DNA of 64,000 nt. It comes from an uncultured archaeon (GTDB lineage: Archaea > Thermoproteota > Bathyarchaeia > 40CM-2-53-6 > CALIRQ01). Shown here one piece after another: positions 13,431 through 61,176 of this stretch. The stretch covers positions 46,868-110,867 of the forward strand of contig CALIRQ010000006.1 in assembly GCA_938042195.1 (NCBI GenBank), read 5' to 3'. The notes under the pieces are model-generated. The model was given only the letters and a program-made list of their open reading frames with translations, was not told the DNA's origin and ran no database searches. The position numbers and the translations under genes are program-made. Within the stretch, counting starts at the first letter, position 1, and every line of letters begins with the position of its first letter.

Positions 13431-13564
13431 TGGCGGGCCCGCCGGGAATTGAACCCGGGGCCACCGGGTCTCTCCCCGGGGGTAAAAGCTTCGCCGGCGC
13501 CCCGCGACGCCACCGGTGCTCTACCTGGCTGAGCTACACGGCTCCTTTGGGAGCTTACGGGCCC
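13431..13564 (-). tRNA. tRNA-Lys(UUU) with three introns (9/10, 30/31, 37/38)
   Basis: Removing 13555-13535 (21 nt), 13512-13490 (23 nt) and 13482-13470 (13 nt) leaves a 77-nt cloverleaf: GGGCCCG UA GCUC AGCCAGGUA GAGC A CCGGG CUUUUAA CCCGG UGGCC CCGGG UUCAAUU CCCGG CGGGCCC G CCA. Each junction forms a BHB-like fold. Confidence 0.9.
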
Positions 13565-13656
13565 AGCAGGCCCGCCCGCTACGCAAAGGGGGCAATTTTC
13601 TAATTAATCTTTCCCGAGCCAAGTTTAAATGCCCTAACCGATAAATCAAAACTGGG

Positions 13657-15610: not shown

Positions 15611-15691
15611 GGAAGCTGGGAGGATCGCTAGGGGATTCCGCAATATTTTTTAATCGAGTTGGCGGGCATCATTCTTCGCCCTGGGCGAAGG

Positions 15692-15816
15692 GCCCTGGTA
15701 GTATAGAGGTATTAAAGATACCGTAAAACCCGGCCTAGTATGTGCGGCTGTCGCCCGCACGACGCGGGTTCAAATCCCGCCCAAAAGGGACCATAATCCC
15801 TTGGCGAGGGGCGCCA
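15692..15816 (+). tRNA. tRNA-Asp(GUC) with two introns (15/16 and 68/69)
   Basis: Removing 15707-15728 (22 nt) and 15784-15808 (25 nt) gives a 78-nt cloverleaf: GCCCUGG UA GUAU AGCCCGGCCUA GUAU G UGCGG CUGUCGC CCGCA CGAC GCGGG UUCAAAU CCCGC CCAGGGC G CCA. Confidence 0.9.
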
Positions 15817-15935
15817 AACCCGCGTCGGAGGGAATCCGAATCACGGGCCTCCTCGGCCCCTAGAGCGAGCCCCGAGGGCTTGGAAACGCAAAAATTTTAT
15901 GCTCGATGTCCCCATCCATTACCGGTCCCGCGGAT

Positions 15936-16131
15936 CCCGCGGTAAGATGCCCAAGGCATCCCGCAAGCTCAGCCTGGTAGAGCTTCCGAGCCGGCCGAGG
16001 CAGGCGGCGGAGAGGCTGTAGGCGCGCGCCTTCGTCGGCGTGCGCTGCCCAAGCCTATCAGGCGACAGAAACCGGAGCGTCGCTGGTTCAAATCGGGCCG
16101 AGGGTCCGTGGAAATCCGGCCCGCGGGACCA
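15936..16131 (+). tRNA. tRNA-Tyr(GUA) with four introns (9/10, 30/31, 37/38, 59/60)
   Basis: Removing 15945-15966, 15989-16014, 16022-16070 and 16093-16114 gives a 77-nt cloverleaf: CCCGCGG UA GCUC AGCCUGGUA GAGC U UCCGG CUGUAGA CCGGA GCGUC GCUGG UUCAAAU CCGGC CCGCGGG A CCA, with the archaeal Tyr identity elements C1-G72 and A73. Confidence 0.9.
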
Positions 16132-16139
16132 CCACGGTA

Positions 16140-16147
16140 ATTTTTTT
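16140..16147 (+). terminator. Oligo-T tract after tRNA-Tyr (putative archaeal terminator)
   Basis: Run of seven T about 10 nt downstream of the CCA. Confidence 0.5.
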
Positions 16148-18501: not shown

Positions 18502-18612
18502 TGGCGGGCCCGCGGGGATTCGAACCCCGGATCCTAGGCTCCCCCCGCATCGCTCCGAAGGCCTCCACGCCCGAGCGGCGCTATGTCCTGATCCAGGCTA
18601 GACGACGGGCCC
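18502..18612 (-). tRNA. tRNA-Arg(UCG) with two introns (29/30, 37/38)
   Basis: Removing 18580-18563 (18 nt) and 18554-18541 (14 nt) restores the anticodon arm UAGGC-CUUCGGA-GCCUA; acceptor GGGCCCG/CGGGCCC, G73, CCA. Confidence 0.88.
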
Positions 18613-36592: not shown

Positions 36593-37105
36593 TTGGAAGG
36601 GGAAGCCCAAAGGTTCGATGGCCGCATCCGCGGGAGGGCGGCGGTGATACCTAACGGCGGGGCCATAGGGGAGCTCAGGGAGAGGGGGTTCGGTGAGCCG
36701 AGGAATGGCGATCTCATACTCTCCCCGTACGAGGCGTTCTACCTCATCGAGAAGGGAAAGCTCAGGATATTGGATCCTAAGGGGGGAAGGGAGCTATCGC
36801 TCGAGGAGATCGTCGGGAGGCTATCGAGGGGCAGGGCCGAGGTTTGGCTGAAGTATTTGGTCTTCAAGGACCTCAGGGATCGCGGCTACATAGTGAGGGA
36901 CTTCAAGGGGATGAACTTGGAGGTCTATGGGAAGGGGCCCCAGAGGAGGATCGCGAGGATCATTTACGAGGGCGGGGAGGCGAGCTTGGATGAGCTCAGG
37001 AGGGCGCTCAGGGCATCAGCGAGGGCCGGAAGGGAGCTCATATTGGCGGTCGTGGATAGGAGGACCGACATAGTGTATTATTCCCTGGGCGAGCTGAAGC
37101 TGTGA
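36593..37105 (+). CDS. endA: tRNA splicing endonuclease, structural (beta) subunit
   Basis: LSPYEAFYLIEKG, KYLVFKDLRDRGYIV and LILAVVDRRTDIVYYSL (L10 loop/beta9). The catalytic Tyr position is kept (LEVY), but there is no His after it and the catalytic Lys segment reads RAGRE. Confidence 0.87.
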   Translation: MEGEAQRFDGRIRGRAAVIPNGGAIGELRERGFGEPRNGDLILSPYEAFYLIEKGKLRILDPKGGRELSLEEIVGRLSRGRAEVWLKYLVFKDLRDRGYIVRDFKGMNLEVYGKGPQRRIARIIYEGGEASLDELRRALRASARAGRELILAVVDRRTDIVYYSLGELKL

Positions 37106-37117
37106 GGGGCCGAGGGG

Positions 37118-38437
37118 TTGACGAGGTTCGCGGTTCCGAGGGGAATGAGGGACCTATGGCCCGAGGATTGGGCCAAGATGGATTGGATGGGGAGGAGGAT
37201 ACTCGACGTCCTGATTGGCTATGGCTTCAAGCCCGTTGAGCCCTCGAAGATCGAGCTGTTGGAGACTCTGGAGGCGAAGAGCGGCCCATCGATAAAGGAG
37301 GAGATCTATTGGTTCGAGGACAAGGCCGGCAGGCCCTTGGGCCTTAGGTTCGATCTCACGGTGGGGCTGGCCCGAATGGTCGCCGGGAGGCCCGACCTCC
37401 CATTGCCGGCCAAGTTCTGCGCGATATCGGATATGTGGCGCTACGATGAGCCCCAATTCGCCAGGTATAGGCATTTTTGGCAATGGGATGCGGAGATCTT
37501 CGGATCCGAGCTCGCTGAGGCGGATGCGGAGGTCATCTCGGCTGGGATCGATGTCCTAAGGGCCGTTGGGATAGTGAACTTCGAGGTGAGGATAAGCGAT
37601 AGGAAGCTGGCCGAGGGGTTCCTGAGGGGGATGGGCATCGGGGATCCAGCGCGGCTCGGGGAGGCCATAAGGATCTTGGATAAGCGAGGGAAGCTATCCC
37701 GAGGGGAGTTCCTAGGGGAGCTGAGGTCCCTCGGCCTAGACGATAGGCAGATCGAGGGGATATTGGATTTCGTCTCCATAAAGGCGCCCCTGGAGGAGGG
37801 GCTGAGCAGGGCGAGGGGCTTGGGCCTCGAGCGCGGTATGGCCGAGGAGGGGTTGAAGGAGCTCGAGGGCTTGGCCGATGCCCTGAGGGGCTTCGGGATC
37901 GGCCAAGAGGCCGTCTTGGACCTGAGCGTGGTGAGGGGATTGGATTATTACGACGGCATCGTATTCGAGGCTTATGATCGGGGCGGGGAGGATATAGGCG
38001 CCATCTTCGGGGGCGGGAGATACGATGGGCTCTGCGGCATTTACGGGCGGAATGTCCCCGGGACCGGATTGGCCGGCGGGATGGAGCGCATGATGCTCTC
38101 CTTAGAGCGCTCGGCCCTCTTCCCGAAGCTCAGGAGCGGGCCGCTAGTCTTCGTGGCATCCGCCAACGAGGCCGTTAGGAAGGAGGCGATCCGGATGGCC
38201 CAAAGGCTCAGGGCTAAGGGGATACCCGCTGAGTTCGATCTGAAGGGGAGGTCCCTCAGGGGCCAGATGGAGTATGCGGCCGGATCGGGCATGCCCTACG
38301 CCTTGATAATTGGGCCCAGGGAATTGGAGAAGGGGGTAGTTAAGTTGAGGGATTTGGGCGCGAGGTCCGAGGAGGAGCTGAGCGCGGAGGATTGCCTCAA
38401 GAAGCTCTCGGACTTAGCCAGATCCTTCGCCCGCTGA
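37118..38437 (+). CDS. hisS: Histidyl-tRNA synthetase
   Basis: PRGMRD, LRFDLT, WRYDEPQFARYRHFWQ, RGLDYYDG, GGGRYDGL, anticodon-binding domain. Confidence 0.96.
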   Translation: MTRFAVPRGMRDLWPEDWAKMDWMGRRILDVLIGYGFKPVEPSKIELLETLEAKSGPSIKEEIYWFEDKAGRPLGLRFDLTVGLARMVAGRPDLPLPAKFCAISDMWRYDEPQFARYRHFWQWDAEIFGSELAEADAEVISAGIDVLRAVGIVNFEVRISDRKLAEGFLRGMGIGDPARLGEAIRILDKRGKLSRGEFLGELRSLGLDDRQIEGILDFVSIKAPLEEGLSRARGLGLERGMAEEGLKELEGLADALRGFGIGQEAVLDLSVVRGLDYYDGIVFEAYDRGGEDIGAIFGGGRYDGLCGIYGRNVPGTGLAGGMERMMLSLERSALFPKLRSGPLVFVASANEAVRKEAIRMAQRLRAKGIPAEFDLKGRSLRGQMEYAAGSGMPYALIIGPRELEKGVVKLRDLGARSEEELSAEDCLKKLSDLARSFAR

Positions 38438-39957: not shown

Positions 39958-40081
39958 TGGTGCGGGGGGTGGGATTCGAACCCACGAAGGCCTGCGCCAC
40001 AGGATATCGCATCCTGCGACGGATCTTAAGTCTGGCACCCCGTTGGGCCCTGCCCCTTTGGCCTGACTCGGGAACCCCCGC
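39958..40081 (-). tRNA. tRNA-Leu(UAA) with two introns (30/31, 37/38)
   Basis: Removing 40048-40032 (17 nt) and 40024-40006 (19 nt) gives an 88-nt tRNA with anticodon arm CAGGA-CUUAAGA-UCCUG, a long variable arm, A73 and CCA. Confidence 0.88.
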
Positions 40082-40138: not shown

Positions 40139-40232
40139 GGGCCCGTGGCTCAGCCTGGATAGGGTTAAGGGCGTCCAAAGCGGCGGCCTCCTAAGTCGTA
40201 GGTCGTGGGTTCGAATCCCACCGGGCCCGCCA
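40139..40232 (+). tRNA. tRNA-Arg(CCU) with one intron (22/23)
   Basis: Removing 40163-40178 (16 nt; central helix GGAU/GUCC) restores the D-stem GCUC/GAGC; anticodon CCU; CCA encoded. Confidence 0.9.
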
Positions 40233-60842: not shown

Positions 60843-61176
60843 GGCGGCGGGGCTTAGGCGGGGGGCTCGGTCTCCCCTGAGGGAACCCAGTCCCGACCAC
60901 AAATGACCGATACGGTGGGCCGAGAGTCGCGGCGAGGCATCAACGACCTCGCTCTGCCTCCTGAGCCCGGCTGGGAGGGTTCGTCCCCCGGGGACGGCGT
61001 AGGGCGACGACCCCTTCTCGGAGGGGAGGGGGGCCGCCCGCGCGGGCCGAACCGGGGGAGGCTTGGGAAAGAGCACCCCTAAGGCCCGGCGTCGGCGCTC
61101 GGGGGGGAGCGGGCCTGAGTTGGGCAAGGGTCGGCGCGCGGGGCACCGAGGTGCCCAACCGCGATGTCCCGCCGCC
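60843..61176 (+). ncRNA. ffs: SRP (7S) RNA
   Basis: Helix 1 GGCGGCGGGGC/GUCCCGCCGCC; Alu loops UCGGUC and GACCGA complementary; helix 6 with a GGAG tetraloop; helix 8 GGGG-AGG-CUU-GGGA-AAG-AGCA-CCCC SRP54 motif. Confidence 0.9.

Follow-up and report, generated by a model that had tools for sequence, protein, structure and literature searches.

The 64-kb stretch of archaeal DNA analysed here (64,000 nucleotides, nt; hereafter the window) carries, at positions 15936-16131 of the forward strand, a gene for tRNA-Tyr(GUA) that is interrupted by four introns. We consider it very probable that this is a functional Bathyarchaeia gene with its own TATA promoter, that it gives rise to a precursor of about 210 nt with a "decoy" sequence in its leader, and that its four introns would be processed by the tRNA-splicing endonuclease EndA and the ligase RtcB. 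As such, it is a multi-intron archaeal tRNA gene spliced at bulge-helix-bulge (BHB) motifs, a kind of gene that is already known, in an exceptionally intron-rich lineage. The most interesting leads are the leader decoy and a series of two to five introns that is found in the same gene among other Bathyarchaeia.

Gene structure and splice motifs

The five exons and four introns can be read directly from the sequence; we number them by Sprinzl positions. Exon 1 (15936-15944, 9 nt) holds nucleotides 1-9, that is, the 5' strand of the acceptor stem (CCCGCGG), U8 and A9, and is separated by intron 1 (15945-15966, 22 nt, position 9/10) from exon 2 (15967-15988, 22 nt), which holds nucleotides 10-30 with the D arm and the 5' strand of the anticodon stem up to G30. 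Intron 2 (15989-16014, 26 nt) lies at position 30/31. It is followed by exon 3 (16015-16021), which is only 7 nt long (GCTGTAG) and consists of G31, C32, U33, the anticodon G34 U35 A36, and G37. Intron 3 (16022-16070, 49 nt) occupies the canonical position 37/38. Exon 4 (16071-16092, 22 nt) then covers nucleotides 38-59, namely the 3' strand of the anticodon stem, the variable loop, the 5' strand of the T stem and the T loop as far as A59. Finally, intron 4 (16093-16114, 22 nt) sits within the T loop at position 59/60, and exon 5 (16115-16131, 17 nt) provides nucleotides 60-76 with the 3' strands of the T stem and the acceptor stem, the discriminator A73 and an encoded CCA. In summary, 119 of the 196 nt of the gene are intronic.

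When the exons are joined, they give a 77-nt sequence, CCCGCGGTAGCTCAGCCTGGTAGAGCTTCCGGCTGTAGACCGGAGCGTCGCTGGTTCAAATCCGGCCCGCGGGACCA, which ARAGORN calls tRNA-Tyr (gta). The spliced tRNA has U8, G37, the T loop TTCAAAT, the discriminator A, the encoded CCA and the pair C1-G72, which is typical of archaeal and eukaryotic tRNA-Tyr. It also equals what we take to be the tRNATyr sequence of M. jannaschii at 64 of 77 positions. A preliminary description of this DNA, made from its letters alone, had arrived at the same picture: the identity, strand and anticodon of the gene, the positions and lengths of its four introns, the intronic share, the 7-nt exon, the pairing of the four central helices discussed below and the clean 77-nt tRNA that remains once the introns are removed all agree with our parsing and with the ARAGORN call. 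It had also expected standard tRNA scans to miss the gene, which holds for both ARAGORN and Rfam/Infernal. On the window, ARAGORN does not report the gene, and Rfam reports it neither at the gathering threshold nor at E<=5. Over the whole window ARAGORN finds one tRNA, which it mis-types, and Rfam finds three, the Tyr gene never being among them.

The exons follow each other colinearly, 5' to 3', within 196 nt and with one promoter and one T-run. A split or permuted tRNA gene was therefore rejected, since the exons stand in order at a single locus. Self-splicing group I or group II introns were rejected as well, because the introns are only 22-49 nt long and Rfam has no intron match in the window.

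To describe the splice motifs we used the usual archaeal BHB layout. Its central helix of 4 bp joins exon and intron; the exon strand stops two nucleotides short of the 5' splice site and the intron strand two nucleotides short of the 3' splice site, and the splice sites lie after the second nucleotide of each 3-nt bulge. All four central helices are paired 4/4: GCGG/CCGC in intron 1, CTTC/GGAG in intron 2, CTGT/ACAG in intron 3 and TTCA/TGGA in intron 4. Every intron has 3-nt bulges on both sides of this helix, in the correct register. For introns 1 to 4, the inner helices count 6, 4, 3 and 6 bp, and the outer helices 0, 2, 2 (5 once intron 2 is removed) and 5 bp. The motif of intron 1 is thus of the HBh' type, with the bulges TAA/AAG and the inner helix GATGCC/GGCATC; that of intron 2 has the bulges CGA/AGG and the inner helix GCCG/CGGC; that of intron 3 has the bulges AGG/AAA; and that of intron 4 is a full hBHBh' motif with the bulges AAT/AAT, its outer helix being the 5-bp T stem.

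We asked how often such motifs appear by chance. In shuffled introns with a fixed boundary, a 4/4 central helix was found with a frequency of 0.02-0.14 per intron, which gives a product of 3e-6 for the four introns. If the inner helices are required too, the chance frequency is at most 0.002 per intron. A permissive BHB scan, for its part, returns dozens of spurious candidates per gene in this GC-rich DNA, and we rejected such a stand-alone scan as proof for this reason. Hence, the decisive evidence is comparative and does not lie in the number of motifs.

Conservation and intron number among Bathyarchaeia

Judged by its genes, the host is a Bathyarchaeia archaeon. The archaeal genes of the window include rpoH, an isopropylmalate-synthase-like gene and a gene for an RNA polymerase subunit B that is not split. 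Moreover, the closest named relatives of a 2-hydroxyacid dehydrogenase encoded 55 nt downstream of the tRNA-Tyr gene belong to metagenome-assembled genomes (MAGs) named "Candidatus Bathyarchaeia archaeon" (91% and 87% identity). We found an identical contig in a Logan assembly (L001) and syntenic contigs in an NCBI MAG (L002, GCA_038847005.1) and in several JGI metagenomes (L003-L009). The gene order synthase, tRNA-Asp, tRNA-Tyr, dehydrogenase is common to all syntenic contigs. More distant homologues of the dehydrogenase (about 53% identity) stand in another gene context with no tRNA nearby.

All four introns are found at the same positions in four distinct variants of this locus, namely the window with L001, L002, the L003 group, and L009. 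Among these variants the exons are identical at 75-76 of 76 positions, the introns are 81-89% identical with indels in their loops, and the TATA element and the T-run are conserved. To collect more distant orthologues, we scanned GTDB representative genomes for a T arm split by the 59/60 intron and JGI metagenomes for a 5' end split by the 9/10 intron; as both patterns demanded an intron, tallies of intron numbers are not frequencies. Once bacterial chance matches were set aside, 48 distinct archaeal tRNA-Tyr genes remained, whose mature sequence hardly varies.

Several of these relatives lack one or another intron. The 9/10 intron is absent from L017-L025, where exons 1 and 2 are contiguous, and the 30/31 intron is absent from L020-L025, L047 and L049, again with contiguous exons. 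The 59/60 intron is absent from about 25 orthologues such as L030, in which the T loop is intact. Since these genes have the same mature sequence, the junctions 9/10, 30/31 and 59/60 are independently confirmed. The 37/38 intron is present in every orthologue collected. We also observed that several contigs among L017-L025, which carry a clearly bathyarchaeal tRNA-Tyr, sit in MAGs that are labelled as bacterial (Candidatus Acidoferrum, Methylomirabilota) and are probably mis-binned.

Next, we analysed covariation in alignments of distinct sequences that comprised the central helix, the bulges and the first six positions of the inner helix. For the 9/10 intron (35 sequences), 91.7% of the cells were paired vs 77.0% in shuffled alignments, with 58 vs 20 double changes, while controls with a slid register gave 24-54%. 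The corresponding values for the 30/31 intron (26 sequences) were 96.9% vs 69.9% and 72 vs 24 double changes, with slid controls at 42-62%, and for the 59/60 intron (14 sequences) 89.3% vs 81.3% and 17 vs 7.9, with slid controls at 20-51%. In all three alignments the observed values were reached by none of 500 shuffles and exceeded the slid controls, too. The central helices are paired to 99-100% in these alignments, and their changes are one-sided only, such as a C to U that gives a G-U pair. For the 37/38 intron only the central helix was assessed; most genes have ACAG or a one-sided variant of it, and in L017-L025 the 3' strand of this helix is imperfect, with 2-3 of 4 pairs.

These data bear on the question whether the gene could be a decaying tRNA pseudogene with insertions, the working tRNA-Tyr being encoded elsewhere in the genome. 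We give this explanation very little credence. Decay does not fit with exons that stay nearly identical while the introns diverge, nor with a mature sequence that is nearly invariant in 48 distinct genes of very different Bathyarchaeia; the insertions lie exactly at BHB-competent sites and show compensatory changes, and promoter, encoded CCA and T-run are all retained. The silence of the standard detectors at this locus would be in line with a pseudogene, and the 64 kb that were examined do leave room for another Tyr gene, against which stands that archaea usually have one gene per tRNA isoacceptor (PMC4307357).

A conserved feature of intron 3 deserves mention here. Close to its 3' end lies a hairpin, GCCTATCAGGC (16055-16065), which reads GCCTRYYAGGC in most lineages and is kept in nearly all of the 48 distinct Tyr genes while the remaining intron has diverged. 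Possibly it has a function, such as serving a modification enzyme that acts on the precursor. Inspection of intron 3 by eye showed no C/D-box motifs.

Highly unlikely, too, is an error in the number of introns, either because some of the four are not spliced or because the 49-nt intron 3 hides a nested fifth one. A number below four is excluded, as any retained insert destroys the cloverleaf and as the exons are contiguous in relatives without introns 1, 2 or 4. Nested BHB-like motifs do occur in intron 3, for example at gene positions 89-115 (central helix 4, inner 5, outer 5), and the authors of tRNAscan-SE point out that some introns become visible only once another is removed (PMC8450103). 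On the other hand, the GC-rich hairpin of intron 3 yields such motifs by chance, amid many spurious matches, and the motif is not kept as a BHB in intron 3 of other lineages. A nested intron would, moreover, leave the mature product unchanged.

Taken across the genome and metagenome scans, the same tRNA-Tyr gene has two, three, four or five introns in other Bathyarchaeia. Three introns are common; we found 6 distinct genes with four and 8 distinct genes with five. The latter, at ten loci (L029/L083, L048/L072, L052, L061, L062, L063, L068 and L071), combine introns at 9/10, 30/31, 37/38, 53/54 and 59/60, which leaves an exon of only 6 nt, TTCAAA. Their additional 53/54 intron is 22-24 nt long and has a central helix CGCY/GGCG that is paired 4/4 in all ten loci, bulges GGA/AAT or GGA/AGT, and an inner helix of 4-6 bp. 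On contig L052, which carries one of these genes, the encoded histidyl-tRNA synthetase has its best named relatives in Bathyarchaeia. A second four-intron type, with a different T stem, is found in L042 and L074. In L059/L077 we noted an insertion in the variable region, the boundaries of which are ambiguous. The preliminary description had reckoned with the case that four-intron tRNAs are already common in this lineage; the genome scans bear this out in part, the literature does not.

The proposed leader decoy and processing

Upstream of the gene, on the same strand, there is an archaeal promoter element, the A/T-rich TATA box AAAAATTTTATG (15890-15901), of which GCAAAAATTTTATG is conserved in L002, L003 and L009. 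In archaea the spacing between TATA box and start is usually about 26 nt, which would put the start of transcription at about 15924. Downstream, 10 nt after the CCA, a run of seven T (16141-16147) is likely an archaeal oligo-T transcription terminator, if we go by the established function of such runs.

The leader that is delimited in this way begins with the decoy GGTCCCGCGG (15924-15933), and a 2-nt spacer, AT (15934-15935), lies between it and exon 1. The decoy is the exact reverse complement of 16121-16130, that is, of the 3' strand of the acceptor stem together with A73, C74 and C75. We see this complementarity in all 30 distinct leaders of Tyr genes with a 9/10 intron and in none of the 8 distinct genes without it, where GGT or TGT directly adjoins C1. 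The complementary stretch is 5-10 nt long, mostly 8-10 nt, and lies 0-4 nt upstream of C1.

What could such an element do? The BHB of intron 1 requires acceptor nucleotides 4-7, which are otherwise held in the 7-bp GC-rich acceptor stem, so the decoy may serve to free them. We computed partition-function folds for 40 whole precursors. The intron-1 central helix had a mean predicted probability of 0.002 without leader and of 0.70 with the native 14-nt leader, and the native leader raised this probability in 40 of the 40 genes. Furthermore, a second gene of the window with a 9/10 intron, that for tRNA-Lys(UUU), is preceded by an analogous leader element of different sequence, GGCGGGCC (13569-13576, reverse strand), which is perfectly complementary to positions 68-75. 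It is conserved in L003, L004 and L009, and in L009 the pairing is kept through a G-U change.

We tried several other interpretations of the sequences around these genes. If the upstream copy of CCCGCGG were the true exon 1, followed by an extra intron, either U8-A9 would be lost or an exon of 2 nt would be needed, and we rejected this possibility; it is also ruled out because the piece to be removed would be only 5-9 nt long and because the copy is truncated to CCCGC in L030 and L046. A leader-trailer helix TTACCG/CGGTAA, which appears in the predicted fold of the window's gene, was rejected since it is not conserved in L002, L003 and L009. Just upstream of the tRNA-Asp gene there is a motif, GCCCTGGGCGAA (15679-15690), which repeats the acceptor 5' strand GCCCTGG and resembles the 3' end of the 68/69 intron of that gene (CCCTTGGCGAG); it is conserved in L002, L003 and L009. 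As a decoy it was rejected, because the simple logic of the decoy does not fit a 68/69 intron.

The decoy of tRNA-Tyr, exon 1 and the 3' end of intron 1 resemble three copies of a near-palindromic CCGCGG segment, a likeness that suggests an origin by local duplication. Potentially, then, the leader copy could be a neutral relic of the very duplication of the 5' acceptor segment that made the 9/10 intron. The decoy string is equal to the ancestral "GGT + exon nt 1-7" of genes without the intron, the 3' end of intron 1 with the start of exon 2 (CCCGYAA/G followed by GCTC) looks like a third, degenerate copy of CCCGCGGTA followed by GCTC, and a single origin with subsequent inheritance could account for the co-occurrence of decoy and intron. 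We think a neutral relic unlikely, though it deserves to be taken seriously: the complementarity to the 3' end has been kept over 5-10 nt while the helices of intron 1 and the spacers diverged completely, the decoy is trimmed from either end and never scrambled, an analogous element occurs in tRNA-Lys, and the predicted effect on BHB formation is large.

With a functional decoy, the processing of the precursor might proceed as follows. Transcription from the TATA promoter would yield an RNA of about 210 nt, made up of the 12-nt leader and the 196-nt gene and ending at the T-run. The decoy GGUCCCGCGG would pair with the 3' end of the tRNA and block the early formation of the acceptor stem, so that acceptor nucleotides 4-7 could form the BHB of intron 1. 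EndA would cut at eight sites within the 3-nt bulges and an RtcB-type ligase would join the exons, which is the established route for BHB introns (PMC4090602, PMC7714728). Introns 1, 2 and 4 are self-contained motifs and could in principle be cut independently. The anticodon stem, which is the outer helix of intron 3, is interrupted by intron 2, hence full recognition of intron 3 probably follows the removal of intron 2, when that stem could form. After the removal of intron 1 the true acceptor stem would form, and the leader would presumably be removed by RNase P. The end product would be the 77-nt tRNA with C1-G72, G37 and the encoded CCA.

About 20 kb downstream of the tRNA-Tyr gene, the window encodes an EndA homologue of 170 aa (36593-37105, forward strand), which matches the Pfam families tRNA_int_endo_N (46 bits) and tRNA_int_endo (50.5 bits). 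In comparison with EndA of M. jannaschii (1a79), the region of the catalytic His125 is deleted and the position of the catalytic Lys is not occupied by Lys; in this region the protein is similar to the "EndA-like" subunit of M. kandleri (5x89), which is non-catalytic. As the catalytic His and Lys are lost, the homologue is probably the structural subunit of a heterotetrameric (alpha-beta)2 enzyme, an architecture that is associated with non-canonical introns (PMC4090602). Its gene lies directly upstream of that for histidyl-tRNA synthetase (37118-38437).

A number of points weigh against the functional gene and the processing proposed for it. All of the evidence is sequence-based, and our view is limited to 64 kb of the genome, so that a second tRNA-Tyr gene elsewhere is possible; neither the catalytic EndA subunit nor RtcB is seen within the window. 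As no orthologue without the 37/38 intron was collected, that junction rests on the cloverleaf and on the comparison with the tRNATyr sequence assumed for M. jannaschii. In the alignments, boundaries among equivalent positions were picked for the best BHB, which gives the covariation values a slight lean toward structure. In ViennaRNA folds of the full precursor, the central helices of introns 2-4 are not among the predicted pairings (P <= 0.1). We dropped the attempt to obtain the splicing order from such folds, since these helices are absent in every intermediate; thermodynamics alone thus supports neither a splicing order nor the BHBs. As for the decoy, shuffled leaders give an intron-1 central helix probability of 0.20, not zero. 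In addition, the predicted stability of the 10-bp decoy duplex exceeds that of the 7-bp acceptor stem, by which it would later have to be replaced.

Other RNA genes, known systems and significance

The window has six tRNA genes, each of them interrupted, and 14 introns among them (2.3 per gene). Apart from tRNA-Tyr, the genes are tRNA-Lys(UUU) (13431-13564, reverse strand; three introns at 9/10, 30/31 and 37/38, and here too one exon of 7 nt), tRNA-Asp(GUC) (15692-15816, forward; two introns at 15/16 and 68/69), tRNA-Arg(UCG) (18502-18612, reverse; two introns at 29/30 and 37/38), tRNA-Leu(UAA) (39958-40081, reverse; two introns with ambiguous boundaries) and tRNA-Arg(CCU) (40139-40232, forward; one intron at 22/23). 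Both ARAGORN and Rfam miss tRNA-Arg(UCG) and tRNA-Leu(UAA), and ARAGORN calls tRNA-Arg(CCU) "Leu(CAA)". CCA is encoded in six of the six genes, and ARAGORN accepts all spliced products. Two further RNA features lie on the forward strand: a thiamine pyrophosphate (TPP) riboswitch, here in an archaeal genome (38523-38635; 71.7 bits, above the gathering score), and an archaeal signal recognition particle RNA (60846-61173), which at 82.7 bits is below the Rfam gathering score of 96.5 and matches the full length of the model.

According to reviews, archaeal tRNA genes have a maximum of three introns (PMC4033280; PMC8450103), and the preliminary description had named the same limit. This limit agrees with the reviews but is out of date; the structural claim of four introns stands. 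To say that the gene surpasses all that is known would be an overstatement, since Supplementary Data 4 of Valentin-Alvarado et al. 2024 (PMC11291895) already has columns for a fourth intron. It lists four introns by both of its methods for tRNA-Arg(TCT) and tRNA-Ile2(CAT) of Freyarchaeia, and by one method for tRNA-Leu(GAG) of Freyarchaeia and for tRNA-Trp(CCA) and tRNA-Lys(TTT) of Atabeyarchaeia (PMC11291895). Four introns in an archaeal tRNA are therefore on record, in another phylum.

These Asgard genes share with ours the four predicted BHB introns in one archaeal tRNA gene, and in these lineages most tRNA genes have introns and over half have several (PMC11291895). They differ in phylum and isoacceptor, and the Asgard Tyr genes carry 1-3 introns (PMC11291895). 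Furthermore, the Asgard cases are table rows only; the two methods disagree for three of the five genes, and neither comparative or covariation support nor a leader element is described there (PMC11291895).

Closer in taxonomy are the Thermoproteales (Pyrobaculum, Thermofilum, Caldivirga; Sugahara et al. 2007/2008, as relayed in PMC4033280 and PMC8450103), which belong to the same phylum-level group, Thermoproteota/TACK. The sites 30/31 and 59/60 of the tRNA-Tyr gene are on the published list of non-canonical positions, which also includes 53/54 (PMC4090602), and an EndA of the heterotetramer type is expected here, too. Unlike the Thermoproteales, for which PMC8450103 gives a maximum of three introns per gene and an average of about 0.84, the window has four introns in tRNA-Tyr and 14 in six genes. 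It also belongs to another lineage, Bathyarchaeia, and its 9/10 site is not on the list of that review (PMC4090602).

Two other systems are similar in part. Among the nuclear tRNA genes of the red alga Cyanidioschyzon merolae, a single gene can carry ectopic BHB introns at three sites (D arm, 37/38 and T loop), and it was shown experimentally that the D-arm and T-loop introns are removed before the 37/38 intron, which parallels the order that we propose (PMC3728597). That alga, however, is eukaryotic, has no more than three introns in any one tRNA gene and has some tRNA genes that are permuted (PMC3728597). The split and tri-split tRNAs of Nanoarchaeum equitans and Caldivirga maquilingensis are broken at BHB-competent sites, 30/31 and 37/38 included, and use the same endonuclease and ligase. 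Their pieces come from separate loci and are joined in trans, whereas the five exons in the window are colinear in one gene of 196 nt. In the literature we found no archaeal tRNAs with four introns other than those in the papers cited here, and nothing on tRNA introns of Bathyarchaeia, on archaeal tRNAs with five introns or on leader decoys.

It is conceivable, and we offer it as a tentative reading that we think less likely than not, that Bathyarchaeia have the most fragmented colinear tRNA genes among those we found on record, with exons down to 6-7 nt, that introns beside the acceptor stem are accompanied by a new class of cis-acting leader decoy, and that new BHB introns can arise by local duplication rather than by transposition.

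The gene moves the documented fragmentation of tRNA genes in TACK/Thermoproteota from three to four introns, and to five in its relatives, and it reveals an extreme wealth of tRNA introns in Bathyarchaeia, an abundant group of uncultured archaea. Since five of the window's six tRNA genes were overlooked or given a wrong type by ARAGORN and Rfam, tRNA inventories of MAGs and completeness estimates that use such tools will be too low for these lineages. As a series of two, three, four and five introns in a tRNA that does not otherwise vary, the Tyr genes amount to a clean natural experiment on the gain and loss of introns, and the exons of 6-7 nt have a bearing on how EndA and RtcB handle their substrates. 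If it is functional, the leader decoy would represent a new means by which a precursor guides itself into a fold that is competent for processing.

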